From positions 32,001-96,000 of the forward strand of contig JAEOUA010000010.1 of NCBI GenBank assembly GCA_016839555.1: a stretch of 64,000 nt of DNA. Reading direction: 5' to 3'. The translations under genes and the position numbers were made by a program. Of this stretch, positions 9,563 through 37,711 are shown one piece after another. Below the pieces are notes generated by a model. That model was not told the DNA's origin. It made no database searches and was given only the letters and a program-made list of their open reading frames with translations. Every line of letters begins with the position of its first letter. The first letter of the stretch is position 1. The stretch is from Promethearchaeota archaeon. Its GTDB lineage: Archaea; Asgardarchaeota; Lokiarchaeia; Sigyniarchaeales; SOKP01.

Positions 9563-9576
9563 TGAATATTTATTCA
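9563..9576. promoter_or_regulatory. Palindromic operator TGAATATTTATTCA upstream of NifX-MinD operon
   Basis: TGAATA-TT-TATTCA inverted repeat about 55 bp upstream of ATG 9508; same motif at 16284 and 37698. Confidence 0.7.
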
Positions 9577-9619
9577 ATAATTGTAATTGTAATTCGAATA
9601 AAAATTTATCCTTAATTTT

Positions 9620-9665
9620 TTCTAAATTATATAACAATTCAGTTCTAAATTATATAACAATTCAG
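9620..9665. repeat. Perfect 23-bp tandem duplication TTCTAAATTATATAACAATTCAG x2
   Basis: Copies at 9620-9642 and 9643-9665 in divergent intergenic region. Confidence 0.95.
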
Positions 9666-9732
9666 ATTTAAATAGGATAACGGTTAAACTTTATATATAT
9701 TTTAAAATACATCCCAATTTAATTAAAAAATT

Positions 9733-11874
9733 ATGGAACAAAAAGAAGTTAAGCTCCTTACCATATCGCTAATTTTAGTGGGATTAACTCTTTCTATTTC
9801 TTTATTAGCATCGTATAAATATATTATGCAATATTCTATTGAGGATGTTTCAGTTCCAATATATTTTACCGTCCTTATGGCAATATTGCTATTAATTGTA
9901 ACTCCCAGTTATTTATACTTAGAACGCTATAATCCTCTTCTTAGCAGAATCAAACCTAAAAAAGTTAAAAATGAGAAGCCGAAGAAATTATCCAAAAAAC
10001 AAATACGAATAATTGAAGTGGCAATTACTTCTATTTTAATTATAAGTATAATGATTGTCTTTATATACTTTTATTTTACGAATTATGATTTTGCGAAGAT
10101 ACTTGAGCAATTTACCGTGCCAATTATGATAGTAATAGGATTAGAGGTCGCGGTACCAGTATTATTCATAATTTCGTTTTTTCTAAAGAAAAAATTTAAA
10201 GTTCTCGCAAGATTGTTTAGTTTGTTAACCCTCATATCATTAGTATCATTTTATTTTTATATTCCTTACATTCCTATCAATATAGAACCTAACCACCCAG
10301 ACCCATTATGGAATCATGGAGTTGTGACCCATATTCTCCCTTCTGCGAGTCACAATCGCTTCATAATAAAGACTTCCTTTGATATTCCCGTAGCTAATCC
10401 ACAATTAAGAATAAATGGAACGGATATTGATGGGGAAAAAATGGATACTAGAGGATACTTTTGGCGTTTTGATGCCCAGAATTTAACACCTAATACAACT
10501 TATCAATTATCGCTTCATTCTGGACCCATTCCCTTATGCTCGTCGTGGCCCTTAAAAACCTTTCCCGATCCAAATGCAGACGTGGATCATTTAAGAATTG
10601 TAATTTTTACTGGTTCTGGAGGGCATGATGCGTGCAGGTCTTGGTATGGGATGGGGCAAATGCCTCTCTCAATAAGAAAGAAAATCTTAAATAGGGCATT
10701 AGATTTTAAACCAGATATTTTAATTGGCACTGGAGATCAAATCTATTATGATCTATATTTTGGGAAAGGACCGAATATTCTTGGTCAATCTAGAAGAGCT
10801 ATACAGTATAATGGAAGATATATACCGTATTTACCAGTTTTAGGAACGAGTAATGAAATATTCCTTAAAAATGCGGTTGATTGTCAAATATCTTATTTAT
10901 ATGGGACAGCTTGTAGATCAATTCCAACCTATTTTATTTTAGATGACCATGAATATTTTGCGAACGACGAAGCTATCCCTGAGGATGATATAGACTGGTC
11001 ACTTTTATTTGTATGGGCTGATCCAACCGTAAAGGAAGGGATTTCTTTTCCCCCAAGTCCTTTACTCTTAGAGCTTGGAAGAATTGCACGAAGATTATAT
11101 TTACCAGAATTTCTCCCCGATGAAAATAGACCCTTGGATCTTCCCGATACAAATTTGGATGGAAGTGCAGAAAATACATCGGAATTTTTTGGTACGCTTC
11201 GTTATGGAAAACTAGTAGAAGGACTATTATATGATCTTAGAAGATACGTAACTCTCACCGGATCAAACGCGACATTTTTACCACCTAAAGCGGAGAATTG
11301 GATAGTTGATCGTATGGAAGCAGAAGATACGGAATATGTTATTAATATCTCCCCAATTAGTTTTGGTTGGAGCGCAGGAAAATGGCTTTCATGGTATCCT
11401 GATGTCAAAATAAAAGTGGATGGACAACCAACGCTCAGTAAATTCGAATATAAATTTGCATGGCAATCTGGATGGTTTCAACAACATAATCGAATATTAA
11501 ATGCCTCATTTAATATGGAGAACGCGACTGATTTGTTTCTCTGTGGTGATATGCATACCCAGGCTGCTGGATATATATTGAGAAGTGGTGAGCTAGATTT
11601 TTCATCGGATCCTATACCCTCTGTACTAGTGGGTTCTCTAGGGGCAGATGGGGGAAGCTATCCGTCGGGAGGGCTCAGAGGGATTGAAGCAATGCCGCCA
11701 AATGATCTATTAGTAGCGGAATTTCTCCCTAGCTATGAAAAGTCCGGTTTTGTGGTTGCTGATTTTACCCATACTGATATTACAGTAAGTTTTTTTGGAT
11801 GGCGTATGGATATGGATAATATTGACGAAATAGATACATTAACCCTTCATTACATCTTTAAAATTCCACGTTAA
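9733..11874 (+). CDS. PhoD-like metallophosphatase with multi-TM N-terminus
   Basis: GTGDQIYYD, LDDHEYFAND, LYDLRRY, CGDMH; 4-5 N-terminal hydrophobic helices. Confidence 0.75.
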   Translation: MEQKEVKLLTISLILVGLTLSISLLASYKYIMQYSIEDVSVPIYFTVLMAILLLIVTPSYLYLERYNPLLSRIKPKKVKNEKPKKLSKKQIRIIEVAITSILIISIMIVFIYFYFTNYDFAKILEQFTVPIMIVIGLEVAVPVLFIISFFLKKKFKVLARLFSLLTLISLVSFYFYIPYIPINIEPNHPDPLWNHGVVTHILPSASHNRFIIKTSFDIPVANPQLRINGTDIDGEKMDTRGYFWRFDAQNLTPNTTYQLSLHSGPIPLCSSWPLKTFPDPNADVDHLRIVIFTGSGGHDACRSWYGMGQMPLSIRKKILNRALDFKPDILIGTGDQIYYDLYFGKGPNILGQSRRAIQYNGRYIPYLPVLGTSNEIFLKNAVDCQISYLYGTACRSIPTYFILDDHEYFANDEAIPEDDIDWSLLFVWADPTVKEGISFPPSPLLLELGRIARRLYLPEFLPDENRPLDLPDTNLDGSAENTSEFFGTLRYGKLVEGLLYDLRRYVTLTGSNATFLPPKAENWIVDRMEAEDTEYVINISPISFGWSAGKWLSWYPDVKIKVDGQPTLSKFEYKFAWQSGWFQQHNRILNASFNMENATDLFLCGDMHTQAAGYILRSGELDFSSDPIPSVLVGSLGADGGSYPSGGLRGIEAMPPNDLLVAEFLPSYEKSGFVVADFTHTDITVSFFGWRMDMDNIDEIDTLTLHYIFKIPR

Positions 11875-11996
11875 GTCTTATTTAATTCTTTTTTTTTCAT
11901 TTCTAACTCTTTATTTAAAAGATATATTTTTTTCTCATGAAAACTGAATTTGAAAATAGATAAAAACGCAAAAAAAAGATAAATTAAAACTATTAT

Positions 11997-12815
11997 TTAT
12001 TCCGATTCCTTCCTAAAGGCAGTTAAAAATATTACTCCAAGCACGACAATTCCAATTCCAAACACTTGAATGAGAATGATTAATTCATTCAATGTGATAA
12101 TCCCTAAAAGAATTGAAAGACTAATGCTAGCAGAAGTGAAGCATGGTACGACTCTATTAGCTTTTGATTTAGCAAACGCAAATTGAGTCATAATTAAAGT
12201 GAGAACTGACATTATCATTGTCATGATGATGAAAATTATTTGCAAATAAGGATCTGGGATTGCGGTAACTCGTTTTGAGACGGTCTGAAATGCCATAAGA
12301 GTGCCAGCTGTACTTCCAAGGATTAAACCCGCCGCTTTGTAATTACTCATTTTTGAAATTATTATTAGGATACCTTCGAACAATAATAAAATAAAAAGAA
12401 TAATAATAAAATACAAAAAATTAAAATCACCTGATTGCACAGCACTCGGATTTGGATTAAAAGCTGTAGCAAGAATTACCCCTAAAACAATTAATATTAT
12501 GCCAAAAATTTCTATTTTAGTGATATTCTCATTTAAGACAAAATAAGAGAAAATTATTAACACAATCAATCCTAATCCTTCAAGAGGAGCAATAACATTG
12601 ATAGGAGCGAAAAAGAGAGCAATCCATTGGACAAACATATAAATGCTAGTAAGGATTGTCCCACCAATCCAAACGCCTGAATTTTTACCTTTAATCTTCT
12701 TCTCTGCTTTAAATCCTTCAATCGCCATTTTCTGTATCCCTTTGCCTAGGTTCAATAACACATACGCAACTAATCCTATAGAAATACCTATAACAATATT
12801 TTCTCCAATAACCAT
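11997..12815 (-). CDS. DMT-superfamily transporter (NIPA/Mg2+-transporter-like)
   Basis: LGKGIQK, W..G, ALFFAP..VIAPL, VLNE; about 9 TM helices. Confidence 0.7.
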   Translation of the reverse strand: MVIGENIVIGISIGLVAYVLLNLGKGIQKMAIEGFKAEKKIKGKNSGVWIGGTILTSIYMFVQWIALFFAPINVIAPLEGLGLIVLIIFSYFVLNENITKIEIFGIILIVLGVILATAFNPNPSAVQSGDFNFLYFIIILFILLLFEGILIIISKMSNYKAAGLILGSTAGTLMAFQTVSKRVTAIPDPYLQIIFIIMTMIMSVLTLIMTQFAFAKSKANRVVPCFTSASISLSILLGIITLNELIILIQVFGIGIVVLGVIFLTAFRKESE

Positions 12816-12858
12816 TCTTTATTTTTTCACTTTTTTTTAGATATTTAATATAATTAGA

Positions 12859-13953
12859 TTAATATTCTGGATATCCCTCAAAATCTTTTAATTCTTCTTG
12901 AATTTTTTCAGAATTTTTTATATCCGCCTCCGTTGGATACGGGACCTCTGCAAAAAGGTCCACATCAGGAAGATCCAGTTTCTTGCGTACTTTTTTCTCT
13001 TTTGGCCCAAATCCTACGCGAGGGGCAAAGAATTTGATTACCTTAAATTTCACTTTTGAGAACCATTTTTCCCATTCTTCAGCAAATCCACCATTTTCAA
13101 TATGCTTAAGAACATTTTTCTGTATATTAGCAATTTTTTCTACTACTTTATTATATTCTATTTCGTTACTTACAATCCCATATTGAGTCCTTTCAGGATA
13201 TGCTTGGATATATCTTGAGAGCCCGTATTCAGTTATTTTTTTATAAATTGATTTTAATTGTCCCGAAAGAATTAATTCAATCAAAACTGCATCGACAGAA
13301 TATCCCGCTTTCATTAAAATATTCATGGTCTCTAATAAAACCCTTCCAAACGAGGGACCAAATCCTTGTTCGGTGAAAAGATCTAAAACGGCTTCTTGCT
13401 TAAATGTGACTTCAATTGCTCCTAATTTGAGTGTTCCTAAGGCTTTACATAACGCTAATAAATTCTGTTTCGCTTCTCCAGAAGCATTTTGATGAACATT
13501 GATAAAACTAAAATAACTTTTTTTATTCAAAAAACGTTCTCTCACACCAATACCAATCATACGTGGAGCAATGAGTAACACATCTACAAAATCTGGTGGT
13601 TTCAGCAGATCAAAAGCAATATTATACCCGCTTGCAAATATTAAACTCTGGTTTTTATGTAAATTAGGTAAAATCTTTTCTTCAAATACCTCATTCATTA
13701 TCTCATCTGGAATTAAATAGAATAATATATCTGCCTTTTTAATAGCTTCTTCTATTGAATATACTTTAAATCCGTCTTTTTCTGCTCTCTGTTTATATTC
13801 ATCATCTCTATTGCCTACTATTACATCTAATCCAGAATCTCTCATGTTTAAAGCTTGAGATCTGCCTTGATTTCCATATCCTATCATCCCAACTATTTTA
13901 TTTGTTAAAATTGAAAGATCTCCATCTTTTTCATAATATATATTAGTTTTCAT
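12859..13953 (-). CDS. ilvC: Ketol-acid reductoisomerase family protein (copy A; NAD(P)H domain and DLFTEQ intact)
   Basis: GYGNQGRSQALNMRDSG, PDE, APRMIG, EAVLDLFTEQ, IENGGFAEEW. Confidence 0.85.
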   Translation of the reverse strand: MKTNIYYEKDGDLSILTNKIVGMIGYGNQGRSQALNMRDSGLDVIVGNRDDEYKQRAEKDGFKVYSIEEAIKKADILFYLIPDEIMNEVFEEKILPNLHKNQSLIFASGYNIAFDLLKPPDFVDVLLIAPRMIGIGVRERFLNKKSYFSFINVHQNASGEAKQNLLALCKALGTLKLGAIEVTFKQEAVLDLFTEQGFGPSFGRVLLETMNILMKAGYSVDAVLIELILSGQLKSIYKKITEYGLSRYIQAYPERTQYGIVSNEIEYNKVVEKIANIQKNVLKHIENGGFAEEWEKWFSKVKFKVIKFFAPRVGFGPKEKKVRKKLDLPDVDLFAEVPYPTEADIKNSEKIQEELKDFEGYPEY

Positions 13954-13987
13954 ATTTATTACTTTTTTATTCTATTTCTTCTAATTA

Positions 13988-15085
13988 TTAAAATTGGCTA
14001 TAAAATTTCTTATAAGTTTCATATGTAGTTCTTAGCTCTTTATATTTAGTTAATTGCTCTTTTGAGGGAAGCTTTAGTTCTTGTCCTTTCTCTGGTATTG
14101 AATAATTAAGATTTTTATAGACCTCTTGTTCTAATTTACTAAAATTAGTAGTAAAGGCAAAGTATTTCATAATATTTAATTTTGCAGTGTTTTTATAATG
14201 CTCCCACTCCTGTGAAAATTGACCTTTTTCAATATATTGCAAAATTTTTTTATGTATCTTATCAATATCGCCTCCTACTTTTGCATATTTAACCCCACGG
14301 CTTAAAGAACCATACTGAGATGTTTGGGAGTGAAAATTCATTTGCTTAATTAACCCCACATTAATCATTTTGTCGACTGTATAAATCATTTCTTCTGAAA
14401 GTATTAATTCAATATATATTGCCTCAGCGGGATAACCTGCTTCCATTAAATTTTTAATAGCCCTCATTAATACCTGATTAAAAGCTGCCCTAAAAGTTTG
14501 TTCAGCAAATAATTTTAAGCTGGTTTGTTGCATAAATGACATCTTAATTGCTGCTTTTTTTAAACCTCCAATCGCTTTTGTTAATGCTAATAAATGATTC
14601 AAGGCATTTCTAGAACTATTTTGAGTAATCCCGATAAAAGTAAAAAAGCCCTCTTTATTAATAAATTGTTTTCTTACGACCTCTCCAAGTGCAAGTGGAG
14701 TAATTAACAGTACATCAATATCTTTGGGAACTTCTATAGTGCTAAAAGCCACATAATATCCATCAGAAAAAATGAGTGTTTTTTGTTTATTCAAATGAGA
14801 AATTACTTGTTTTTCAAAAATTTCTTTCATATCTTTATCTGGGAGTAATAAAAATATGAAATCACCCCGTTTGACAGCCTCTGCAATAGAAAAGGTTTCA
14901 AAGCCATCTTTATCTGCTCGCATTTTATATTTTTCATTAGAAATGCCAATTATTACATTAAGTTCCGAATCTCTCATATTTAGCGCTTGAGCTTTTGCTT
15001 GATTTCCATACCCAATAACTGATATTGTTTTATTCTTTAAAAGGGATAAATCGGCATCATTCTCCCGAAAAATTGTAGTTTCCAT
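13988..15085 (-). CDS. ilvC: Ketol-acid reductoisomerase family protein (copy B; degenerate N-terminal site, HSQTSQYG intact)
   Basis: GYGNQAKAQALNMRDS, KLFAEQ, ELILSEE, HSQTSQYG, IEKGQFSQEW. Confidence 0.8.
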   Translation of the reverse strand: METTIFRENDADLSLLKNKTISVIGYGNQAKAQALNMRDSELNVIIGISNEKYKMRADKDGFETFSIAEAVKRGDFIFLLLPDKDMKEIFEKQVISHLNKQKTLIFSDGYYVAFSTIEVPKDIDVLLITPLALGEVVRKQFINKEGFFTFIGITQNSSRNALNHLLALTKAIGGLKKAAIKMSFMQQTSLKLFAEQTFRAAFNQVLMRAIKNLMEAGYPAEAIYIELILSEEMIYTVDKMINVGLIKQMNFHSQTSQYGSLSRGVKYAKVGGDIDKIHKKILQYIEKGQFSQEWEHYKNTAKLNIMKYFAFTTNFSKLEQEVYKNLNYSIPEKGQELKLPSKEQLTKYKELRTTYETYKKFYSQF

Positions 15086-15490
15086 TTAGTTTTTTCCTTT
15101 TTGTATTTCTTTAACGATTAATAGTTATATATGATTTCTTTGTAATAATATTTAAACCTTAAATATTCTTAAAAAGCTAAATTTAAAAATATAGACTATC
15201 ATAAAAAATGTAAAACGCATTTTAATAAAAATAAATTTCTTTATTGAATTATTGAATTTTAAAAAAAAAAATCAAAGATCTTAAGAAAATTAAAAATCAA
15301 GATTTTATTAATAAGAAAAAATGTTCTAATAAATAATTACCAACCATAAAAAATTTAAGTAAAAATCTTTATTATATTCAAAACTTACATATTTAAGAAG
15401 CATTTAAAAAGCAGTATAAAGAAATATTTATCACATTTATTTGATTTAACAGGTTATAGGAAATAATTTAAAAAGGAGTAGGATCATACC

Positions 15491-16033
15491 ATAGAATATC
15501 GTACATATAAGATATGCATTGTTGGTGATGGAGGTGTAGGTAAGACCACAATCGTCCATCGCTATGTAGATGATATATTTTTAGATGATACAAAAATTAC
15601 AATCGGTACCAATTTATTTGTGAAAAGAATAGACCTCCCTAACAAAAAGAAGAAAATTACGCTTCAGATTTGGGATTTGGGTGGTGAAGCAAAATTCGAA
15701 GGCATAAGAAATAGCTTCTATGCTGGAGCGAATGGTATTATTTATACATTTGATTTAACTAGAAGATTTTCACTGATGAATTTAAGTAAATGGAAGACTG
15801 AAATTGAACGAGTTATAGGATCTAAACCTAGTGTGTTAGTAGGAAATAAGCTCGATTTAGTGAAGTATGATAATGAGAGACCGATTCCAGAAAGTGAAGG
15901 AGAAAAAATAAAAGAGGAATTAGGATGCAGCTATTATTTAGAAACCTCCGCAAAAGAAGATGTGAGAATAGATAAAGCATTTCTAAAGCTTTCTGAACTT
16001 ATTTTAAATACATATAAACCATTAGATTATTAG
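15491..16033 (+). CDS. Rab-like small GTPase; real N-terminus extends upstream of the ORF-track GTG (probable ATA start)
   Basis: In-frame from 15491: IEYRTYKICIVGDGGVGKTT..TIG..WDLGGE..GNKLD..ETSAK; in-frame TAG at 15479-15481; no C-terminal prenylation Cys. Confidence 0.9.
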   Translation: MEYRTYKICIVGDGGVGKTTIVHRYVDDIFLDDTKITIGTNLFVKRIDLPNKKKKITLQIWDLGGEAKFEGIRNSFYAGANGIIYTFDLTRRFSLMNLSKWKTEIERVIGSKPSVLVGNKLDLVKYDNERPIPESEGEKIKEELGCSYYLETSAKEDVRIDKAFLKLSELILNTYKPLDY

Positions 16034-16283
16034 TCTCTCAATTAAAAATTTGATAATTTGGACCTATTTATTCTCTTTGTTTTTCATTGATTCGTGTTGA
16101 TTAAAAAATAAGTTTTTTATTTTTTGAAAAAATTAAAAATTCTTGATATCTATTAAAGAATTGAAGAAATATATAAACATACATAGAGATATATGCTTTT
16201 TTTGAACAGGATTTATTTTATGGCTTTATTCTATATTTATCAAGTAATTGCTTTTATATTATAGATAAAAAGTTTAATAATAA

Positions 16284-16297
16284 TGAATATATATTCA
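16284..16297. promoter_or_regulatory. Palindromic operator TGAATATATATTCA 3 nt downstream of a TATA-like box, upstream of Mrp
   Basis: AAAAG-TTTAATAA-taa-TGAATATATATTCA; perfect palindrome. Confidence 0.7.
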
Positions 16298-16478
16298 CAA
16301 TATATAGAATTGCTTCTATAAATATTTTCCTCTCTCGAATATAAATGTATAATTTAAAATGGATTATTTTTCATAAATTATTACCAATATACTAATAGAG
16401 GAAGGATTATTTCAAGAATAAAAGAATAAATGGAATTAATTTTTTAAAAATTAATAAATAATAATAAAGGGAAAAAAT

Positions 16479-17354
16479 ATGGAAGAAAAAGACATCCCAG
16501 ATGAAATTGATCTGAATAAGACTGTTCAAGAAGGTAAAAAAGAAGCTATGGAACAACGCTTGGAAGACATTAAGATGAATATGGCCAGGATAAAACATAA
16601 ATTAGTGATAATTAGTGGAAAGGGCGGGGTAGGCAAAACTACGGTTGCAGTAAATTTAGCTATGAGCTTAGCAAGTTTAGGATTAAGAGTAGGAATCCTT
16701 GATGTTGATATTACAGGACCAAATGTCACAAAAATGCTAGGGGTTGATGATGAGTTAAAGCCCAGAGTTGACAAAGGAAGGAATAAATTTTATCCTGTAA
16801 ATGGTCCCCTCAATATTAAGGTGCTTTCTATGTCATTTCTTACAGAAAATACAGATACGCCTGTAATTTGGAGAGGTCCAATGAAAATGGGAGCTATAAG
16901 ACAGTTTTTAGGCGATGCAGAATGGGGAGAGTTGGATTATATTGTATTCGACTTACCCCCGGGAACATCCGATGAAACTCTTGATATTTTACAATTAATT
17001 CCTGATGAAAATGTAATTGTGGTTACTACACCTCAAGAAGTAGCGTTACTTGATGCCCGCAAAACCATTAGAATGTCCCAAATTATGGAGAGAAATGTAT
17101 TAGGTATAATTGAAAACATGTCCGGCTTTGATTGTCCGCATTGTGGGAAACATATAGATTTATATCCTCCTGGTGGGGCTGAAAAGGCTGCAAATGATTT
17201 TAATGTCGAACTCTTAGGGCAAGTACCATTTGAGATCGAAGTTGGCGTGCAGGGTGATCGGGGTCTACCATTTGTTGTAAAGTATCCTGATTCAGAAAGC
17301 GCAAAAGAATTCAAAAAAATTGTAATTAAGATAAGAGAGAGAATTGAAAACTAA
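16479..17354 (+). CDS. mrp: Mrp/ApbC/NBP35 Fe-S cluster carrier ATPase
   Basis: SGKGGVGKT, DVDITGP, IWRGP, DLPPGTSD, VTTPQ, ENMSGFDCPHC. Confidence 0.95.
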   Translation: MEEKDIPDEIDLNKTVQEGKKEAMEQRLEDIKMNMARIKHKLVIISGKGGVGKTTVAVNLAMSLASLGLRVGILDVDITGPNVTKMLGVDDELKPRVDKGRNKFYPVNGPLNIKVLSMSFLTENTDTPVIWRGPMKMGAIRQFLGDAEWGELDYIVFDLPPGTSDETLDILQLIPDENVIVVTTPQEVALLDARKTIRMSQIMERNVLGIIENMSGFDCPHCGKHIDLYPPGGAEKAANDFNVELLGQVPFEIEVGVQGDRGLPFVVKYPDSESAKEFKKIVIKIRERIEN

Positions 17355-17562
17355 AATCTAATCTTAATTCCTTAATCTTATTTTTCTTTTTTAAATTTAA
17401 ATCTATTAGCTTCTCTCAACTAAGATATTTATAATTGTGAAAAATAAAAATTGTGGCTTATTGACTTTAGATTAATCTATTCTCATAAAGAAATTTTATA
17501 TATTCATAATCTAATATCATTATATAGAATGGATATTAAATCTATTTTTAATTGCGAATATT

Positions 17563-18423: not shown

Positions 18424-18480
18424 CAACAAAAATTTCGAATAAACTTTTTTCCTCTATAAATAGGATAAATAGAGAACGCA

Positions 18481-18519
18481 GTAAGTAAAAACAACTCAGT
18501 ATTTGTCAATTGTCCTATG
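18481..18519 (+). pseudogene. Possible remnant 5' end of a third paralogue
   Basis: Translates VSKNNSVFVNCPM, compared with MSNKTATVFIQCPI and MSNKKQVFIQCPV of the flanking genes. Confidence 0.4.
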
Positions 18520-18626
18520 ATAGTAGAATTTACTTCTAAACTCTCCCTACTCATCATTCTTACACAATAAATCTCCTATGATATAAAAATATAAATATCA
18601 AAAATGTATTTTTTCATTTAACTATC

Positions 18627-22821: not shown

Positions 22822-22843
22822 TAAAACAAAAAGAGAAACTATA

Positions 22844-25122: not shown

Positions 25123-25146
25123 AAAGAATAAACTTTTCGATGAAAA

Positions 25147-28666: not shown

Positions 28667-29281
28667 GATTTTTAGAAATAAAAATATAGTATTCATAATT
28701 TTTTTAAAGTTTGTATCTGTTTCTCAATTCTTAAAAAAATAAAAAAATGCTATTGATATATTCTGGATATTACATCATTTAATAATTTTGCATTTTCTCT
28801 TTAATTATTTAAATGGAATTATTAGAAACCGAGATTGAAATTTATAATAGTAAGTTAAGATTATTCAATTGGTTATATGAGGAGATGCAACTATTTTACA
28901 GCGATTTAAGGGAAGAAATTAATCAGAAAGGAAAAAATTTACCCATAAATCTTTAAATAGTAATCTTCATAAAAGAGAATTCAAAAAGCTTGAAAAATTA
29001 CGCTTTTTTTATAATAATTCTTCTTGATTCCTTTAGTAGGGAGTAATGATATTTATTAACATTAAGATCGAAAAATAGATCGTGAAATCTGGCTTTCACG
29101 AACATATACCTATATGCCCATAATATAGATGTATATTCAATTTAGAGGAAAAGATTAGGAATATAATGAAATATAATTATTAATCAAAGGTGAAAAATTC
29201 AGAAGAAGATTATTCTTCTTATTTCAGTAGCAAAAAATTTAAAATTAAAATTAAAGTGAAATAAAAATAAAAAAAAGATAT

Positions 29282-30757
29282 TTATTTTGTTAATTCAGGA
29301 TGTTTTGCTAATTCTTCTCTCATTTTCAAAAGTCTATCACCGTGAAGCTTGTACAACTTGAAAAATAGTATGGATACCAAGCAACCAAGCGCTGGGAATA
29401 AGAAAATTATTAATTTCAATCCGAGTATAACATCAACTCCGCCTTGAGGTTTATAGCCTCCTGCCCAACTGGTCCCTTGAAAGACTATAAATATGGTTAA
29501 CATTGTAAGGATTGTACTAATCCTATGAATAAATGCATTAATCCCATAGAACACACCAGATCTTTTCACACCAAAATTAAGAGCATCTTCGTCTATAATG
29601 TCGCCATGAATAATATCAACATAAAATAATGCGCCTCCTAAGCCAAGTCCTTGTAATGCAGTGATTAATATACCAAGGATCTCCATTGTTCCAAAACCCC
29701 CAGCTTCACCTAATCTAATCACCTGGCCAAGGATTTCTATATCTACATAATTTTGCGCACCAGGTCCTAAAAAGAAATAGGGTACTAATAAAACAATCCA
29801 CAATCCTAATGTAATCATAATAGCATTACGCATTCCAACTTTTGATCCAAGCCACTTATGAAAAGGTAATACTAATGCAGCTACTAATAATGCACTCAAA
29901 AGAGAAATTGTTTTCAAAAATGCTAAATTGGGAGGAATATCAATAACATATTCAAAGTAGAGTGGGAAGATAGTAATTAATGTATTAAATACATACCATA
30001 TCATCGTATTTGCAATAACAAATTTCACGAATGTTTTATTTTTCAATGTAATTTTTAAAGATTGGAAAAAGCTTGGTCGCTTTGCTTCTAATTCATCTGA
30101 GATCCTCTTTTCTTTTATTCCTTTTAATAAAAATGGTACAGCAAAAACGATTACAACAATAGCTAAATAAATGCCCCAAATTGGATAAGCCGTTTTTAAT
30201 TGAGAGACGGTTACATTTCCTTTAGGAGTCTGAGGGGTGAGTGTCGGAATAGCAGCAAGCATAACAGCAAGTACTGTGAATCCCTTTATAAATATATTGG
30301 TTTGAGCTCGTTTAGATTCAGAGGTAAATTGTTCTGGAAAAATAGCGTTTACGTTTACGTCAAAAAGCGTATAAAAGAATTCAAACAGGATGATAATAGC
30401 TAAGAAGTAGGAAAATTCAGGAATTTTAGATTCCGTTGAAAATGGTACGAAAAAGAGAAAGAACATAGATAGTGCAAGGGGTACAATTGAGAGGATTAAA
30501 TAATATTTTCTCTTTCCTAATTTTCCTTTTTGTTTCGTTTTTTCTGATAACGCTCCCAAGATGGGGTCGTTTATCATATTCCAGAAGGTCCAAATTATAA
30601 ATCCAATCCATACTAAATTCCCTAATTGTATTACAGAGAAATAATATGTAAATACCAGCAGAGAAAATGCTTGATATGTTGCTTGGTCGGGGATTGCGGA
30701 TAAACCGAAGAGCACTCTTTCTTTTAATGGAACTCTTTCTGTATCTTCTTGACTCAT
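29282..30757 (-). CDS. MFS transporter, GPH/MelB family
   Basis: WNMINDPILGALS, FPEQF, DEDALNFGVKRSGVFYG; paralogue of 1479..2903. Confidence 0.9.
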   Translation of the reverse strand: MSQEDTERVPLKERVLFGLSAIPDQATYQAFSLLVFTYYFSVIQLGNLVWIGFIIWTFWNMINDPILGALSEKTKQKGKLGKRKYYLILSIVPLALSMFFLFFVPFSTESKIPEFSYFLAIIILFEFFYTLFDVNVNAIFPEQFTSESKRAQTNIFIKGFTVLAVMLAAIPTLTPQTPKGNVTVSQLKTAYPIWGIYLAIVVIVFAVPFLLKGIKEKRISDELEAKRPSFFQSLKITLKNKTFVKFVIANTMIWYVFNTLITIFPLYFEYVIDIPPNLAFLKTISLLSALLVAALVLPFHKWLGSKVGMRNAIMITLGLWIVLLVPYFFLGPGAQNYVDIEILGQVIRLGEAGGFGTMEILGILITALQGLGLGGALFYVDIIHGDIIDEDALNFGVKRSGVFYGINAFIHRISTILTMLTIFIVFQGTSWAGGYKPQGGVDVILGLKLIIFLFPALGCLVSILFFKLYKLHGDRLLKMREELAKHPELTK

Positions 30758-31088
30758 TCTTTTTTTCTCATTTTTATATAGTTTAGTTTTAAATAATAGA
30801 GCTAATTACATTTCTATTTGAAACTATTTAAAACTTTAGTTCTTAATATCATATGAATTATTGGCAATAAAATTTCTTAATATTTTAATTTATAATTTTT
30901 AATTTATCAATATATAAGCGCCTAGATGACGGAAAGTCATCTTAGATTTAAATATTAGGAATTTCCATAAACTTTTGAAACATTCCAGTAAAAATGTTCT
31001 TCTATTTTCTTATTTGAGAGTTTTAATGCATTTTTCGTAAATATTTTTTCTTTTCTATACTCCCTTTAATAGCTCTATGTGGATATTT

Positions 31089-32117
31089 TTAATGAGCTCG
31101 AAGCGTGTTAATAAATTCTCTGAAATCTCTTTCTTTAAAAGTTGATAAATCTTTGATTTTATTGATTTGATTAGAAATTATTTCTGAAAACTTATTTCGA
31201 TCGATTAAATCCACATCTATTTCTTTTGCAATAAAACATATTAATATGTAATTTTTTCCTTTCATTCGTGAATCTTCAACCGAAGAATCATCAATCAATG
31301 AGCTGTAAATAAAAGCAACCTCTCCCTGGATGCCCCCAAAAGGTAAAGGTCCAAATAAACCGGTTCGATAATAAATTCCTTGTCCTATCGCAGTATAAAA
31401 ATAGATTCCACTCTTTAATAGAAGATTATAATCGACGGGATATTCAGAAAAGAGATGTTGTGGTCCTTGAGAGCTCATTTTATAAAAGATTATATTATTT
31501 ACGATTCCTATATGGCTTCGCAAAGTTAAAGTAAAAATATAATAAGATATAATAAAGCTAAGTAAAGAAATAAAAAGTGCTTCTAAAATTACATCATATA
31601 AGCCATATGGAATATCATCTCCAAAAAAGATATAAATCAATACATTGGAATGAAGTAAAAGACTAATAACACTTATTATATTATAGATTAATACTTGAAT
31701 TTGTTTAATTGAAATTAAAATTATAAATAAATTTCCAAAAAGTAAAAAAGACAAGGTCTTATACATATGTAGGGCGGATAAAGGATTTGCATTAAATAAT
31801 TCGACTATAACGAAATGGATTATGATCGTTAACATTATACCGCCTGAAAAATTTCCTGCTAAAATAGGCTTTCTAATCCTAATAAAAAGAAATGATAGAA
31901 AAATTAATCCAATTACGATAAAATCTCTTAAAAAATTCAAAATATCAAAACTCCTGAAATATTCTGGTAATCCATCTAGTAAAAATATAAATACCCACCC
32001 AGCAAGATATACAAGATTAATAAAAAGGAGATTTCTCATCTTTATCTTAATATCTGAGGGATATTCGTTATATACAGACAAAAAATAATTTTTCAACTTA
32101 TTATAAAATTTGAACAT
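31089..32117 (-). CDS. Polytopic membrane protein with C-terminal longin/uDENN-like domain
   Basis: About 6 TM helices, then IFYKMSSQGP..TAIGQG..LFGPLPF..FIYS..D.R..ILICF, resembling the N-terminus of 49144..50553. Confidence 0.65.
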   Translation of the reverse strand: MFKFYNKLKNYFLSVYNEYPSDIKIKMRNLLFINLVYLAGWVFIFLLDGLPEYFRSFDILNFLRDFIVIGLIFLSFLFIRIRKPILAGNFSGGIMLTIIIHFVIVELFNANPLSALHMYKTLSFLLFGNLFIILISIKQIQVLIYNIISVISLLLHSNVLIYIFFGDDIPYGLYDVILEALFISLLSFIISYYIFTLTLRSHIGIVNNIIFYKMSSQGPQHLFSEYPVDYNLLLKSGIYFYTAIGQGIYYRTGLFGPLPFGGIQGEVAFIYSSLIDDSSVEDSRMKGKNYILICFIAKEIDVDLIDRNKFSEIISNQINKIKDLSTFKERDFREFINTLRAH

Positions 32118-32258
32118 AGGAGAATAATTACATATTTAGTTTTATAAATTTTCATTTTTGAATAATTATCACTTTTAAATTTAAGCTAAAAATTCATTAT
32201 TAAAAGCATCTATAGATAGATATAATTAAATGGTTTAATTCTCATAATTAGAAATCAT

Positions 32259-33197
32259 ATGAAATATTTATATGGTCCCGTTCCGAGTCGAAGATTGGGG
32301 CAGAGTTTGGGTGTAGATCCCATTCCAAGTAAGACATGTAATTATCAGTGCATCTATTGTCAACTCGGAAGAACCAGTAATTTTACAAATCTGAGAAAAA
32401 ATTATTATCCAAAAGAAGAAATATTTAATGAATTAAAAACAGTATTAACCGAAAAAAAGCCATATTTTGATTATCTTACTTTTGTGGGCAGTGGTGAGCC
32501 CACTTTATATAAAGATTTGGGAGATCTCATTTCTTATGCAAAAGAATATACAGAAAAACCGATATGTGTAATCACAAACGGTTCCTTACTTTATAAAAGT
32601 GAGGTCAGAGATGATTTATATGATGTTGAAGTTGTGTTACCTACTTTAGATGCGGGAGATGAAAAAACTTTTCGGTTGATTAATAGACCTCATCCTGAGA
32701 TTAAATTTAAAGATCTAATAGAGGGATTTATTGAATTTAGAAACCACTATGATGGTCAATTTTGGGTTGAAGTTATGTTGGTTAAGAATGTAAATGATTC
32801 AAAAGAAGAATTGCTTAAAATAAAAGATAAAATGGACTTAATAGAGCCCGATAGAATAGATATTAACGTCCCCATTCGCCCACCCGCAGAAAGTTGGGTT
32901 GAAATTCCAAATAAATCCGTTATAAGTAGATTAAATGAGGTTTTCATTGATTATAATAATATTAATTTTCCAGAGATGGGGCATTTTAAATTTTATTCAT
33001 CTGATTTTGAAAAGGAACTCTTATCCATTATAGAACGGCATCCTATGAGAGAGGACCAAATTTTAGAAAGCTTTTCATCTCCAAATCTTAGTAAGCAAGA
33101 GATTCAAGAAAAACTTTCCTTGCTGGAAAAGCAAAACAAAATAACGGGAATGAATTATCATAATAATAAGTTTTGGAAACTAAAAATTATTAAATGA
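32259..33197 (+). CDS. Radical SAM protein (COG0731-like)
   Basis: YGPVPSRRLG.SLGVD, CNYQCIYC, GSGEPTL, ITNGS, RPPAE. Confidence 0.9.
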   Translation: MKYLYGPVPSRRLGQSLGVDPIPSKTCNYQCIYCQLGRTSNFTNLRKNYYPKEEIFNELKTVLTEKKPYFDYLTFVGSGEPTLYKDLGDLISYAKEYTEKPICVITNGSLLYKSEVRDDLYDVEVVLPTLDAGDEKTFRLINRPHPEIKFKDLIEGFIEFRNHYDGQFWVEVMLVKNVNDSKEELLKIKDKMDLIEPDRIDINVPIRPPAESWVEIPNKSVISRLNEVFIDYNNINFPEMGHFKFYSSDFEKELLSIIERHPMREDQILESFSSPNLSKQEIQEKLSLLEKQNKITGMNYHNNKFWKLKIIK

Positions 33198-33296
33198 ACT
33201 AAAATATCTTTGAAAGTGATAAGTATTAAATGATTATACATATAATCTTTAATATAATAAGTATAAGTTTGAATAATACACTACAAAGGATTTATT

Positions 33297-33716
33297 GTGA
33301 AAACTAACAGCTTAAATTCTAATATACCTCTTATAAAAGGTATTGTGATATGTAAAGATTCTGGAGAATACGTATTTGACTTAATGATTGACTCAGATTT
33401 AAATCCATTGTTACTGTCCTCATATGTTGGCGCTTTATCTTTGTTTGGACATGATAACGTGGGAAAAATTGATGAAATCATTATCAAAAGCAATAATATT
33501 GAAATGCTTATCATTAACAATTATAAATTAGTGTTTATCACGATATTAGATAAAACTTTTGCTATTAACCATGATTTTAAAAATGAAGCAGAGAGTTTAT
33601 TAAAAACTTTTTATGAAACTTATAAAGAGGACATCAATTCCGTGGAAGTAGGAAAATTCGAACCTTTTAAAAAATTATTAAAAAACAAATTAAAAGAATT
33701 TTTGGAAACAAACTGA
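33297..33716 (+). CDS. Longin/roadblock-like small protein
   Basis: Beta-beta (VICKDSG), helix (PLLLSSYVGAL..F), three strands, helices ending F..F; typical Asgard longin-like pattern. Confidence 0.6.
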   Translation: MKTNSLNSNIPLIKGIVICKDSGEYVFDLMIDSDLNPLLLSSYVGALSLFGHDNVGKIDEIIIKSNNIEMLIINNYKLVFITILDKTFAINHDFKNEAESLLKTFYETYKEDINSVEVGKFEPFKKLLKNKLKEFLETN

Positions 33717-33822
33717 TGTTTAATTAAATAGATATTCCCTCTACTAAACTCTTTTTCGTTTTTGATTTAATATAATAGACTTTATAATAAAATTGTCAAT
33801 AACAAATAAGTAATTTATTTTA

Positions 33823-34722
33823 CTAAAATTCAGGGGTTCTTTTCTTAAAAATTAAACTTCCCTGATCTACCCCAAATATTCGCTCCATTAATGAACATTT
33901 TGCTTTTAAGAGATAAAAAATATTTTTATTTTGGATCTTTGATTGAATAGATGTGTTTCCCGTAAGAGTTTCAAAATTTCCTTGTCCTTTTGATAAAATT
34001 AAACAGTCTTCTTCAAAAAAATAATGCTTAAATTCCTCGGTAACATCCGAAAAATCAATTCCTGGGGCACCACTGGACTCTATTACTTTCACTAACTTTG
34101 TTAATGATATATCTTTAGCATCTTCTATGGTAGCATCATTAATAATTGGAGCAGAGCGAACGGCACAAATTATCTCTAATTCAGGATATTCCGATAACAA
34201 CATCTCTATTAAAATTTTATCAAATACAATCTCTCCGGTGTTATCTAATATAATCAATAACCGCTTTTCTTTCTCTAACAATTTTTTAAATATAGGATAA
34301 TCATTAATCACTAAATCTTTTGGAGAAAATCTTTTTAAGTCATTTATAATGTCGATTTTATGCTGACTCGCAAAATCAATAGTATTTGCCAACGCTGATA
34401 CAATTATTGCCTCAAATACAGGATCTTGACCACTTTTTACAAAATTTTTCACTTCATCGTAATATTTTAATGCAAGTTGATTATAATGATGCTTCAGCTT
34501 TTTATATGGATCCTTAACCTTCATCATCTCGCCAACTAAATTGTATAAATATTTTCCCACTATCGGCGAGGAAATCTTCTCTACATCGTTGTCAAGTAGA
34601 AATTTCATAAGCTCTTTTTGTGCTTTCAAAATTACGGAAGGTTCAATGTCTGGCTTTAGCAATGTAAACGCTTGAACCATTTGATTAAAAAGACAACCTA
34701 TGCATTCCGGATGAAGCTTCAT
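33823..34722 (-). CDS. DUF89 / ARMT1-like damage-control phosphatase
   Basis: CIGC, DPY..K, N.IDF, DNTGEIVFD, PIINDAT, SKGQGNFETL, LKAKC. Confidence 0.92.
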   Translation of the reverse strand: MKLHPECIGCLFNQMVQAFTLLKPDIEPSVILKAQKELMKFLLDNDVEKISSPIVGKYLYNLVGEMMKVKDPYKKLKHHYNQLALKYYDEVKNFVKSGQDPVFEAIIVSALANTIDFASQHKIDIINDLKRFSPKDLVINDYPIFKKLLEKEKRLLIILDNTGEIVFDKILIEMLLSEYPELEIICAVRSAPIINDATIEDAKDISLTKLVKVIESSGAPGIDFSDVTEEFKHYFFEEDCLILSKGQGNFETLTGNTSIQSKIQNKNIFYLLKAKCSLMERIFGVDQGSLIFKKRTPEF

Positions 34723-34835
34723 TGCAGATGATAACTCTTTTAGATAGAAAAAGGCGTAAAAGTATTAAATTCTTGGATTTTGTGGATAATTTCTTATTAA
34801 ATAAAAAAAAATAAAAAAAAAAATAGAAGAGAGAT

Positions 34836-36251
34836 TTATACTTTCTGCATTGCTTTTTGCTTGGCCAGTTTTTCTTCTTCTGTCAACTCCACTTCTCCAC
34901 GCTTTACAAAGAACATAAATATCAGCGCTAACACAAAGAATACGGAAACCATCAGGAAAAACGTAATTTGCCCAAATAAATCTGTGAGGGCTCCAATTAT
35001 ATATGGCCCCAGAATTGCTGCTAACACACTGAAAAAGTAATAAGCTCCGGTGTACGTCCCTATCTTTTCTGCAGATGGCGCCAATTCCCATACAATGACT
35101 ATCGAATTCACATTTATACATGCCCAACCCATGCCGAATATGATCAAGATAATTATAAGAAGGATTAAGTTGGCTTGAATTATAAAACCAATTACCGTAA
35201 CGACAATTATTATTATTAAGCCGATCTTAATGGTTAATCGTCGACCTATTTTTCCAGCAATGATACCCGCGGGTAAGGCAAATATTATAAATGGTATGGC
35301 AACGAAATTAAATAAAAATCCTGCGGTACCTCTTGTCCCTACTATGGCAAGCCCTTCTGGGCCGGCATAAATAGAGAATAATGCTTCTGCGCCGTTGTAG
35401 CCCACGAACCAGCCAAATATCGCTAATAAAATAAACAAAGTGCTCTTATCCTCTTCTTTGAGAATATATTTAAGGCTTTTAAAGATTCCTGGCTTTTCTA
35501 TTCTTGGTTGAATCTCAGATATACCTTCTTTTCCCCCTTGCTCCATTTCTAGAATTAATTGATAGCTATATGCGTCTTTTTCTTTAACCTTTAGAAGGAG
35601 AATAATTAATGCCACGATCATAACAATAGAACCTATGATGAATGTGATTTCAAATCCAATATAATCCGAAGCAAGACTAAGTGTAAATGCCGCTATCGAA
35701 CCTACTCCTCCCATTAAATTAATAATGGCATTAGCTTTGCTACGATTATGAGGGCGGATGAAATCGGGCATTAAAGCAACGGCTTGAGAACGATAGAATC
35801 CCATGCTTATTGAAAAGAGTGCCATCCATAGAATCAAGAGCCAAAATCCTATTCCTAGACCACCAGAATCAGAGAAAGTTTTTGGTATTTTAATTACAAA
35901 TCCCAAAATGTCCAATTCCGTATATTTCGGCGTCCCAAATCCCGTGGGAATCAAAGCAAAAAAGATGGCGGCTGCAATAGTCCCAACGATTATGTATGGT
36001 ATTCGGCGTCCTAAACGGGTACGTGTTGAATCTGAAACGCCGCCCATGATGGGTTGGATAACCACTCCAACCATATTATCCATAGCCATTAAAAGACCAA
36101 CGATACCATATGTACCAAGATATAGAAAAAGCGCTTGATTGACTTGCGTGTTGTAAAGCGACCAGGATATACCAGTCGTAAAAAACGCAAACCCAATAAA
36201 GAAAGTCAGTTTGTAATCTAATTTTCCTTTAGACTGATTTTGTTCAGACAT
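34836..36251 (-). CDS. MFS transporter (maltose/SLC45-like)
   Basis: MAMDN, SDSTRTRLGRRIPY, ALMPD, RSKANAIINLMGG, GTYTG.YY. Confidence 0.9.
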   Translation of the reverse strand: MSEQNQSKGKLDYKLTFFIGFAFFTTGISWSLYNTQVNQALFLYLGTYGIVGLLMAMDNMVGVVIQPIMGGVSDSTRTRLGRRIPYIIVGTIAAAIFFALIPTGFGTPKYTELDILGFVIKIPKTFSDSGGLGIGFWLLILWMALFSISMGFYRSQAVALMPDFIRPHNRSKANAIINLMGGVGSIAAFTLSLASDYIGFEITFIIGSIVMIVALIILLLKVKEKDAYSYQLILEMEQGGKEGISEIQPRIEKPGIFKSLKYILKEEDKSTLFILLAIFGWFVGYNGAEALFSIYAGPEGLAIVGTRGTAGFLFNFVAIPFIIFALPAGIIAGKIGRRLTIKIGLIIIIVVTVIGFIIQANLILLIIILIIFGMGWACINVNSIVIVWELAPSAEKIGTYTGAYYFFSVLAAILGPYIIGALTDLFGQITFFLMVSVFFVLALIFMFFVKRGEVELTEEEKLAKQKAMQKV

Positions 36252-36451
36252 GATTACACCACTTTGATTAATTAATTTTTAAAAAATATTACTAGATTTA
36301 AATAGATTTTGTTCTATAAAAATCCTTAGATAATAGGGTTAATAATAAAATTCAATAAGAAATAAGACAAAATCTACGAAAATAGAATCAATTTAATGAG
36401 TAGAATATTTCAAAATATTATCAAACAAATAATAAGGAAAAGGAAAAAAAG

Positions 36452-36604
36452 TTAAGGTGTGATACTAATATTAATAGTGTTTATATCTTCTGGAATTCCT
36501 TTAATTGATTTCAAGAAGCCCATAGTGATATTTTTAAGCATGGCTTGCATAATCTCGTTCAAAGGAATCTCTTTTTCATTTACTTCTAATTTAATTTCTG
36601 CCAT
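36452..36604 (-). CDS. 50-aa protein resembling the stand-alone C-terminal domain of MobB-type proteins; not in ORF track
   Basis: MAEIKLEVNEKEIPLNEIMQAMLKNITMGFLKSIKGIPEDINTINISITP*; AAGGT upstream of ATG. Confidence 0.7.
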   Translation of the reverse strand: MAEIKLEVNEKEIPLNEIMQAMLKNITMGFLKSIKGIPEDINTINISITP

Positions 36605-36810
36605 TTTTTATCTATACCTTTGTATTGTTTGATTTGAAGAAAATTCTTTCAGCTTTAAATAAATTTAGGTTTTGATTTATAAAAAGAGAAATGATGATTT
36701 TTAGAATTGAGTTTTAGAGCTTAAATCAAAAATGGAAAGTTATTAAGCATTGAGAGGAGAAATATCGAATATATAACACAGAAAAACTGACCCAAAATAT
36801 TCTAATAGGA

Positions 36811-37209
36811 TTAATTAAGATCTTCATTAAGATTATAGAGTGCTTCTGAGACCTTTTTATTAAGGTGATGTTCAATTTTGCAGCAAATTTCTTCAATAGA
36901 AACATCTTCTTCACTCAAATTTAATACATTCAGAAAAAAATCTTTTAAGACTTCATATCTTTTTACGATTTTTTTTCCAATTTGTTTTCCTTTCTGGGTT
37001 AATCGCATGGACTTACGAGGCTTCCAATCAATAAGATCTAATTCAGCAAGTTTATATAACATATTGGTAACTGATGAGGGCTTCACATTTAATAAATCTG
37101 CAATTTCTGAATTAGAGACCCATCCTCCATGGTTTCGTTTTGAAATTAAATAGATTGCTTTTAAATAATTCTCTTGGCTTTCCGGTAGTTTTTCTGATAT
37201 TTCTTCCAT
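36811..37209 (-). CDS. DtxR/MntR-family metal-dependent transcriptional regulator
   Basis: SQENYLKAIY, IA..L.VKPSSVTNML.KL, LT.KG, CKIEH. Confidence 0.92.
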   Translation of the reverse strand: MEEISEKLPESQENYLKAIYLISKRNHGGWVSNSEIADLLNVKPSSVTNMLYKLAELDLIDWKPRKSMRLTQKGKQIGKKIVKRYEVLKDFFLNVLNLSEEDVSIEEICCKIEHHLNKKVSEALYNLNEDLN

Positions 37210-37257
37210 TTTATCTTGTTAGTTTTTAATTTTTTCAAAAAAAAATAAAAAAAAATA

Positions 37258-37641
37258 TTATTTTTGTTCTAGATCACTAATTCTTTTAGAGATATCTTCT
37301 AGTGCACTTTTAATTCCATTCATGTCGGATTCTAAATAATCTTTTTCTTGTTTGAGCATATTAAGCTGCTGTTCATCACTTAAAGGTGCTGCGGGGGCAA
37401 CAGGATAAGTACCAGGTGCGGCAACAGGAGGGACGTATGCGCGAAAACCCCATCCTCTGCCACGTCCCCATGCCATACCTCTTCCATATCCTCTAAAACC
37501 TCTCCCTCGTCCCCATCCCCAGGCCATACCCATTCCTGGGCCTTTTGTGTATCCGGGGGAGCTATATCCAGCACAATAACCTAATCCTCTACCCGTCATA
37601 GGACCTAGTCCGCCAGGTCCAGTACCATCTCCTCCAGGCAT
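37258..37641 (-). CDS. DUF5320 family Gly/Arg-rich protein
   Basis: MPGGDGTGP.G.GPMTGRG.GYC, GRG repeats, C-terminal coiled coil; GGAGG SD. Confidence 0.9.
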   Translation of the reverse strand: MPGGDGTGPGGLGPMTGRGLGYCAGYSSPGYTKGPGMGMAWGWGRGRGFRGYGRGMAWGRGRGWGFRAYVPPVAAPGTYPVAPAAPLSDEQQLNMLKQEKDYLESDMNGIKSALEDISKRISDLEQK

Positions 37642-37697
37642 TTTAATTTATAACCTCCTTTTATAAATAATTTTGAAATTTTTTTAATTGTCAATAT

Positions 37698-37711
37698 TGA
37701 ATAATTATTCA
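37698..37711. promoter_or_regulatory. Palindromic operator TGAATAATTATTCA upstream of DUF5320-DtxR
   Basis: Minus strand reads CCGAACA-TTTAAAAA-taa-TGAATAATTATTCA; about 56 bp upstream of ATG 37641. Confidence 0.7.

Follow-up and report, generated by a model that had tools for sequence, protein, structure and literature searches.

A 64,000-nucleotide stretch of a Promethearchaeota genome (assembly GCA_016839555.1, contig JAEOUA010000010.1, positions 32,001 to 96,000; hereafter the window) carries three copies of a 14-bp palindrome upstream of scattered genes for NifX-like, Mrp and DUF5320 proteins. The palindrome has a 6-NN-6 architecture, TGAATA-NN-TATTCA, with the perfect form TGAATAWWTATTCA, and we refer to it as the box. 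Comparison with related genomes indicates that the box is a real and widely conserved predicted operator of an Fe-S or "orange protein" (ORP)-type gene set across Asgard archaea. We further propose, with a probability of roughly 70%, that it is read throughout the Asgard archaea by a homodimer of DUF134/UPF0251 as the operator of an ORP-type Fe-S regulon, a proposal that rests on comparative genomics and structural analogy. The source genome, G000, is that of a Loki-type Asgard archaeon (3.74 Mb, 29.6% GC), and the window corresponds to C10:32001-96000 in our contig numbering.

A preliminary description of the window had reported perfect boxes at three loci and a box-to-ATG distance of about 55 bp for the NifX-like and DUF5320 genes, and both observations hold (Table 1). 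The three perfect boxes compare with 0.01 expected, and none of 100 dinucleotide shuffles of the window gave three. Scanning the whole genome with the pattern TGAATANNTATTCA returned seven perfect sites. Six are intergenic, against 0.68 expected, which is the top count among 384 composition-matched 6-NN-6 palindromes (the runner-up has 5) and bears out the enrichment over a matched background that the preliminary description had called for. The count alone is moderately unusual; it is the functional coherence of the targets that makes the regulon convincing. Four perfect boxes lie outside the window. One precedes a second NifX-like gene by 59 bp and another precedes feoA-feoB by 37 bp; a third, at C12:41794, separates CutA1 from a TrmB-like gene and abuts the start of the latter; the fourth stands before a small open reading frame, with a nucleotidyltransferase-like gene next in line. 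Of the genome's three NifX-like genes, two are preceded by a box, as is its sole DUF5320 gene.

Boxes with one mismatch show no bulk enrichment (26 versus 22 expected). We rejected them as a class and counted only individual sites backed by orthology: those of a metallo-β-lactamase (MBL)-fold protein (C5:17606), a flavin mononucleotide (FMN) reductase (C10:144144), a thioredoxin operon (C10:143466) and a hydrogenase (C9:60141-60205). At the last locus three one-mismatch boxes fall within 78 bp (C9:60141-60218), approximately 420-485 bp upstream of a gene for an MvhG/VhuG-like hydrogenase small subunit. The orthologues of this gene in two relatives, G010 and G014, have a perfect box.

In 40 related genomes the box was found 169 times, compared with 17 times for the reversed motif that served as control. 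To score orthologues independently of the motif, 80 loci, all from Promethearchaeota, were retrieved through DUF134 homology, and perfect boxes no more than 250 bp upstream of a gene were counted. The box precedes NifX1 at 39 of 47 loci, Mrp at 30 of 37, NifX2 at 29 of 43 and DUF5320 at 7 of 10, versus a single one of 249 other genes. With up to one mismatch, it is found at all ten DUF5320 loci. The presence of the motif upstream of orthologues in other Asgard genomes, together with its enrichment, supports the original suggestion that the palindrome ties the three dispersed loci into a regulon. In four relatives boxes stand upstream of the orthologues of the same genes as in the source genome. 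This comparison also added as members an FMN reductase, a zinc-ribbon protein encoded with thioredoxin, two MBL-fold proteins and the MvhG/VhuG-like hydrogenase subunit, all of which have one-mismatch boxes in the source genome.

The distribution extends well beyond close relatives. A scan of 150 genomes gave more boxes than reversed controls in the families that we denote f1, f2, f7, f14, f16, f20 and f23. Among 20 loci chosen by the motif alone from distant families (f7, f14, f23 and others), 12 have the box on a NifX-MinD operon, and most of these operons include DUF134. Some of the distant genomes picked in this way have a GC content of 45-49%, at which an AT-rich 14-mer is unlikely to occur by chance.

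The usual layout in relatives is one compact cluster, in which NifX2 and DUF134 diverge from a box, and MinD_B-MinD_A-NifX1 diverges from Mrp-IscU/NifU-radical SAM at another; DUF5320-DtxR, behind its own box, often joins it. The NifX1 and Mrp units have one common box in relatives and one box each in the source genome. Since the compact cluster is the prevailing arrangement, the gene order suggests that the source genome dispersed an ancestral cluster of which every fragment retained an operator. The earlier statement that these gene families typically co-cluster and are scattered here agrees with what we find in most relatives. In a scattered cluster with one operator per fragment, cis-elements would hold a regulon together after the loss of synteny.

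Several observations point to DUF134 as the protein that binds the box. The source genome has a single copy of this DUF134/UPF0251 gene (PF02001), on a different contig from the window (C7:30532-30939; 64.9 bits versus a cut-off of 27). The encoded protein combines an N-terminal helix-turn-helix (HTH) resembling DeoR and sigma-70 region 4 with a C-terminal CxxC...CxxC zinc ribbon. DUF134 is the sole transcription factor shared by the clusters of f1, f2, f3, f7 and f14. In f1 it is divergent from NifX2 with the box between them, and the gene immediately behind the box is DUF134 in f7, f14 and one f9 genome. Isolated DUF134 genes have a half-degenerate box 20-70 bp upstream, with at most two mismatches in 63 of 91 cases compared with 26 of 249 in the background. 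A DUF134-type protein encoded elsewhere was the second candidate of the preliminary description, and from its recurrence in the clusters and its DeoR-like HTH we regard it as the best one.

The DUF134 HTH profile matches the DNA-binding domain of Bacillus subtilis DeoR with an E-value of 4.3e-8 (ISQPTFSRIL aligned with ISRPTVSRLL), and Foldseek superimposes the two domains with a root-mean-square deviation of 0.7 Å over 39 residues. These matches are at the level of domains; no full-length fold match to the PDB was returned by Foldseek at E <= 0.001. The left operator in the solved DeoR complex, ATTGAACAAAATTTCAAT, has the form TGAA-N6-TTCA, and R39 of DeoR contacts G4 and T14 (PMC11229326). 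The Asgard box is also TGAA-N6-TTCA, and the arginine equivalent to R39 is kept in the DUF134 of every lineage examined. A predicted model of the DUF134 homodimer scored 0.62 in ipSAE (interaction prediction score from aligned errors), where the best control scored 0.00; of reference proteins with solved structures, 20 of 30 homodimers and 1 of 23 single chains scored as high. The partner had a predicted local distance difference test score of at least 69, and separate runs shared at least 43% of contacts. Full-text literature searches turned up no function for DUF134/UPF0251, databases list it only as "DUF134 domain-containing" or "predicted DNA-binding protein", and nothing relevant was found in the literature on DUF5320 or on Asgard regulons.

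Some points weigh against this assignment, which is built on comparative genomics and DeoR homology. Only a half-site (TGAATAATGGTTAA) lies upstream of DUF134 in the source genome itself. DUF134 was not found in G002, which is 93% complete and retains three boxes, nor in a few incomplete box-bearing genomes. Family f4 has DUF134 homologues and no box, but its genomes are about 55% GC and its gene context is different; with DUF134 and MinD in differing contexts, we judged f4 uninformative as a natural no-box control. Against a constant box, the recognition helix takes several forms (SQPTFSR, SQSSYSR, SQPTLHR), and only some of its positions can therefore set specificity. Lastly, the equation of DeoR R34 and R39 with the two arginines of ISRPTVSR is a probable one, derived from their five-residue spacing.

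Two f9 loci, L185 (G065) and L189 (G081), have a second, short DUF134 paralogue that is divergent from DUF5320 and adjoins MinD. The intergenic region between DUF134 and DUF5320 contains a different repeated motif there (TGTGCATA-like), and these could be paralogue-specific operators.

We propose that TTA-TGAATAWWTATTCA-TAA would be the operator of an Asgard-wide "orange-protein"-type metallocluster and Fe-S regulon. Its core would consist of two NifX-like proteins, two MinD-ferredoxin ATPases, Mrp/NBP35, an IscU/NifU-like scaffold, radical SAM and DUF5320, with lineage-dependent additions that would include feoAB, a DtxR/MntR-like protein, thioredoxin, FMN reductase, OsmC-like and MBL-fold proteins and an Mvh-type hydrogenase subunit. 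A DUF134 homodimer would sit on the box such that each recognition helix reads one TGAA/TTCA arm and the conserved arginine (R62) is placed on the box's only G:C pair. The bound dimer would repress by blocking the TATA-binding protein (TBP) and transcription factor B (TFB) or RNA polymerase, with autorepression wherever DUF134 comes first behind the box. The Cys4 module, together with the Fe-S and redox functions of the regulon genes, leads us to speculate that it may sense metal, Fe-S or redox state.

The extended motif is a 20-bp palindrome, TTA-TGAATAATTATTCA-TAA, and it always abuts the core promoter, on a side that varies by lineage. The TATA-box-like geometry described earlier for two of the window loci, TTTAATAA-taa-BOX before Mrp (+ strand) and TTTAAAAA-taa-BOX before DUF5320 (- strand), is present in the sequence. 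Upstream of box 2 by 3 bp is a sequence resembling a TFB-recognition element (BRE) and TATA box, AAAAAG-TTTAATAA (16267-16280). Such an element precedes the box before Mrp in three species of the genus, with box and TATA conserved in G001 and G005. Box 1 is separated from NifX1 by the TATA-like AAATAAATAAAAT (9550-9562, - strand), and box 3 is flanked on both sides by TATA-like elements (37715-37722 and 37676-37688). A genome-wide BRE profile for orienting promoters gave an aggregate signal that was too weak in the 30% GC source genome.

Other lineages place the box differently. In f1 and f2 a TATA-like element begins 3-5 bp from the box on the side of NifX1, NifX2 or DUF5320, which puts the box on the BRE side. 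In f7, 10 bp separate the box from the downstream TATA element of a leaderless DUF134 operon. All five f14 genomes show the order TATA, 3-4 bp, box, 4 bp and the GTG start of a leaderless DUF134, and in one f9 genome the box likewise lies between TATA and the DUF134 start codon. The preliminary description had the box as a repressor site just downstream of TATA. This applies to Mrp in this genus and to DUF134 in f14 and the f9 genome; it does not apply to NifX1, NifX2 and DUF5320 in most relatives, where TATA lies between box and gene. Where boxes occur as tandem pairs, their centres are 61-62 bp apart in 15 of 30 unique pairs at several promoters (L017, L021, L065, L066 and others), a spacing suggestive of cooperativity between proteins bound to the same DNA face.

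We favour repression as the probable mode of action because the box always abuts the core promoter, and occlusion of TBP/TFB or RNA polymerase accounts most simply for all the arrangements. The shift of the box from the BRE side (f1) or 10 bp upstream of TATA (f7) to a position downstream of it (f14) counts against this reading, and with the box on different sides of TATA a dual activator/repressor similar to SurR or TrmBL1 fits equally well. The archaeal regulators SurR and TrmBL1 activate from positions upstream of BRE/TATA and repress from positions downstream. DUF134 on the same operator might accordingly act mainly as an activator or in a dual manner, recruiting TFB and TBP near the BRE at NifX1, NifX2 and DUF5320 and repressing only downstream of TATA. 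The f1/f2 and f7 placements are those expected of such a protein, and the orp operons of bacteria are controlled by an activator, OrpR (PMC8359166). However, the 3-5 bp gap in f1 leaves no room for a BRE, the f14 and f9 boxes sit between TATA and the start codon of the very operon concerned, and pairs at 61-62 bp are more typical of repressor looping. We regard a mainly activating or dual role as a tentative alternative to repression by DUF134, with position-dependent dual regulation as the leading contender.

The first candidate named in the preliminary description was the DtxR/MntR-like protein encoded behind DUF5320 (36811-37209), which could be a metal-dependent repressor of an Fe/Mn regulon that acts on the box and, via box 3, controls its own gene. 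Proteins of the DtxR family bind AT-rich palindromes as dimers, and this one has a complete DtxR HTH and dimerisation/metal domain with a C-x2-E-H metal motif. A DUF5320-DtxR operon stands behind a perfect box in G000, G010, G014 and at several other loci, and feoA-feoB has a box in G000, G001, G005 and G020. A regulator is expected wherever its operator and targets are conserved. In the clusters of f2 (G025, G032, G035, G036, G038), f7 and f14, however, the box persists on NifX, MinD and DUF5320 where DtxR is absent. The complete f1 genomes G013 (100%), G019 (100%) and G016 (99%) have boxes but only a DtxR paralogue of 45-50% identity and no orthologue, and the sole DtxR homologue of the closed genome G032 lies more than 600 kb from any box. 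With the exception of one locus in G012, DtxR is never the first gene behind a box. As other Asgard families keep the box without DtxR, DtxR is probably not the regulator, and we consider its role as box binder improbable. The DUF5320-DtxR operon is likely regulated by the box and does not encode its binder; the comparative evidence makes it most likely that DUF134, not the neighbouring DtxR, reads the box.

Still further down in probability is binding by a different transcription factor, for example a Fur-like protein or the TrmB/MarR-like protein at C12:41794, with DUF134 a mere co-clustered passenger: the box has a superficial likeness to that of Bacillus Fur, TGATAATNATTATCA, the TrmB-like gene start is abutted by a perfect box and DUF134 was not found in a few box-bearing genomes, but the TrmB-like box was not recovered at the orthologue in the four relatives checked, and no other transcription factor recurs across the f1, f2, f7 and f14 clusters. 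Fur itself was rejected, as the box is 6-2-6 where that of Fur is 7-1-7, and no true Fur gene was found in the source genome, whose sole match (22.9 bits) covers the winged HTH segment of a 320-residue frame.

The orp operons of Desulfovibrio vulgaris are controlled by sigma54 and the Fe-S redox sensor and activator OrpR (PMC8359166), and MrpORP has also been described for this system (PMC6345978). The gene set in the window matches these "Orange protein"-type clusters, as the preliminary description had stated: both have Nitro_FeMo-Co/ORP-like proteins, two MinD ATPases with ferredoxin inserts and an Mrp/NBP35 carrier. The Asgard NifX2 matches the C-terminal domain of MrpORP (2.4e-26). The two systems also share divergent operons with one common regulatory region, and the system is anaerobe-specific. 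Regulation differs: OrpR binds enhancers, senses through an Fe-S PAS domain and activates sigma54 promoters, whereas the Asgard genes have a 14-20 bp palindrome at an archaeal TATA/BRE and a small HTH-plus-zinc-ribbon protein as candidate regulator. To our knowledge, sigma54 is absent from archaea. The Asgard regulon is also wider, adding IscU, radical SAM, feoAB, DtxR, thioredoxin, OsmC and a hydrogenase subunit. In archaea these genes are the equivalent of the known orp operons, with an archaeal control logic that probably relies on a different, uncharacterised protein family. The authors of the OrpR study suggest an archaeal origin of the ORP system (PMC8359166).

The closest solved relative of the DUF134 HTH is B. 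subtilis DeoR, a member of the SorC family (PDB 7BHY, 8R7Y; PMC11229326), which binds as a dimer to a TGAA-N6-TTCA site with the same arms and spacing as the Asgard box through a G-contacting arginine that is conserved in DUF134. DeoR differs in having a large sugar-phosphate effector domain and in binding as a tetramer to a 39-bp operator at a bacterial sigma-A promoter. DUF134 lacks the SorC domain, has only a Cys4 ribbon of about 40 residues and operates in an archaeal promoter context. The DtxR/IdeR/MntR metal-dependent repressors, including MDR1 of Archaeoglobus fulgidus, have metal-related targets such as feoAB, promoter-proximal palindromes and autoregulation. The Asgard regulon resembles theirs in its targets and operator position, and it encodes a member of the family, but the box persists where clusters have no DtxR. 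IscR and SufR control Fe-S assembly and carrier genes, are autoregulated and sense through a Cys-ligated cofactor. The parallel with DUF134 is one of functional analogy only, in the Fe-S targets and in the presumed autoregulation and Cys-ligated sensor; IscR and SufR belong to the Rrf2 and ArsR-type families, and the Cys4 site of DUF134 may bind structural zinc instead of an Fe-S cluster.

These results would assign DUF134/UPF0251, a widespread domain of unknown function, to a candidate operator and a set of targets, with the analogy to DeoR as structural rationale. They identify a possible control of the anaerobe-specific ORP system in archaea and provide a well-supported regulon for the Asgard archaea, in which transcriptional regulation is almost unexplored. 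A broader conjecture, which we hold to be possible and no stronger, is that the dedicated regulation of ORP-type NifX/MinD/Mrp clusters, in archaea and anaerobic bacteria alike, may ancestrally belong to DUF134/UPF0251 (COG1342), which would act through TGAA-N6-TTCA and sense iron, Fe-S or redox state with its Cys4 module. If so, DUF134 would be the archaeal counterpart of the redox sensor OrpR, and the set described here would be among the first regulator-operator-regulon sets defined in Asgard archaea.

Table 1. Putative operator boxes and genes at the box loci, in window coordinates. Box scores are from a matrix built on orthologous sites.
Feature	Position	Strand	Location or family evidence	Score (bits)
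Putative operator box 1, TGAATATTTATTCA	9563..9576		54 bp upstream of NifX1 ATG (9508, -)	20.2
Putative operator box 2, TGAATATATATTCA	16284..16297		Mrp ATG (16479, +) 181 bp downstream	21.5
Putative operator box 3, TGAATAATTATTCA	37698..37711		56 bp upstream of DUF5320 ATG (37641, -)	23.7
Weaker box, TGAATGTAAATTCA	41278..41291		66 bp upstream of OsmC-related gene 40720-41211 (-)	12.6
MinD/Fer4_B, MinD with ferredoxin insert	7162-8091	-	Pfam	
MinD/Fer4_A, MinD with ferredoxin insert	8093-9028	-	Pfam	
NifX1 (Nitro_FeMo-Co)	9065-9508	-	Pfam	
Mrp/NUBPL, Mrp/NBP35-type Fe-S carrier ATPase	16479-17354	+	PF10609, 1.2e-92	
Radical SAM	32259-33197	+	Pfam	
DUF89/ARMT1-like	33823-34722	-	Pfam	
Major facilitator superfamily (MFS) transporter	34836-36251	-	Pfam	
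DtxR/MntR-like regulator	36811-37209	-	PF01325 3.3e-15 (N-terminal HTH), PF02742 3.6e-11 (C-terminal metal/dimerisation)	
DUF5320	37258-37641	-	Pfam	

Pfam assignments agree with the gene identities given earlier for the NifX-like, MinD-ferredoxin, Mrp, DUF5320, DtxR, radical SAM and DUF89 genes. The NifX1-MinD/Fer4_A-MinD/Fer4_B operon (7162..9508, -) is the ORP-type core, and its gene order is kept in relatives. For the DtxR-like protein the best NCBIfam match is MntR, under the cut-off of that model. The MFS and DUF89/ARMT1 genes (33823..36251, -) are co-directional behind DtxR and may form the tail of its operon; the same MFS-DUF89 order after DtxR recurs in G012 (L067). The weaker box falls outside the interval covered by the preliminary description (9563-37711); an orthologue of the OsmC-related gene behind it is found within box-preceded operons of relatives. 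The genes that separate the box loci are unrelated housekeeping genes.

In relatives, radical SAM is the third gene of the box-controlled Mrp-IscU/NifU-radical SAM operon, and in the source genome it is detached. The degenerate copy of the box reported before this gene does exist (TGAATAATTATCAC, 32159-32172), but it is not credible as a full operator: its right arm is broken, it scores -2.3 bits on the matrix derived from orthologues, and no counterpart was found upstream of the radical SAM orthologue in four species of the same genus (G001, G002, G004, G006). We rejected it as the operator of the radical SAM gene.

The regulon had also been suggested to extend into a divergent fwd block. This block (3081-6998, -) is formylmethanofuran-dehydrogenase-like and encodes an Fe-S protein, a molybdopterin oxidoreductase, a Molydop_binding protein and an amidohydrolase. 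It turned out to be co-directional with the NifX-MinD operon, directly downstream of it after a 163-bp gap. The fwd-like genes lie outside the NifX-MinD cluster in relatives, where this adjacency has no counterpart, and the extension is not supported.

A few further features of the window and genome were recorded. Between box 1 and a gene for an uncharacterised 713-residue protein (9733-11874) is a perfect tandem duplication of a 23-mer, TTCTAAATTATATAACAATTCAG (9620-9665), which may be a separate regulatory site of that gene. Mrp starts about 180 bp after box 2, and the intervening stretch contains blocks conserved in three species of the genus (16314-16470), including a second TATA-like element, TTCTATAAAT, and the motif ATTATTAsCAATAnAyTAATAGAG. 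A search of positions 9000-38500, these blocks included, against the RNA families in Rfam gave nothing meaningful. Between the NifX and Mrp loci are two tandem ketol-acid reductoisomerase paralogues (12859-15085) and a Ras-family small GTPase (15620-16033). Elsewhere in the genome another palindrome, AAATCC-NN-GGATTT, occurs at five intergenic sites, against 0.05 expected (C3:1906, C3:120063, C4:17581, C11:123878, C11:278427). All five lie within one repeated element of approximately 34 bp (CAAAAGACAAAAATCCAGGGATTTAAGCAAGG), a sixth site at C11:56488 has other flanks, and the element is probably a small dispersed repeat.

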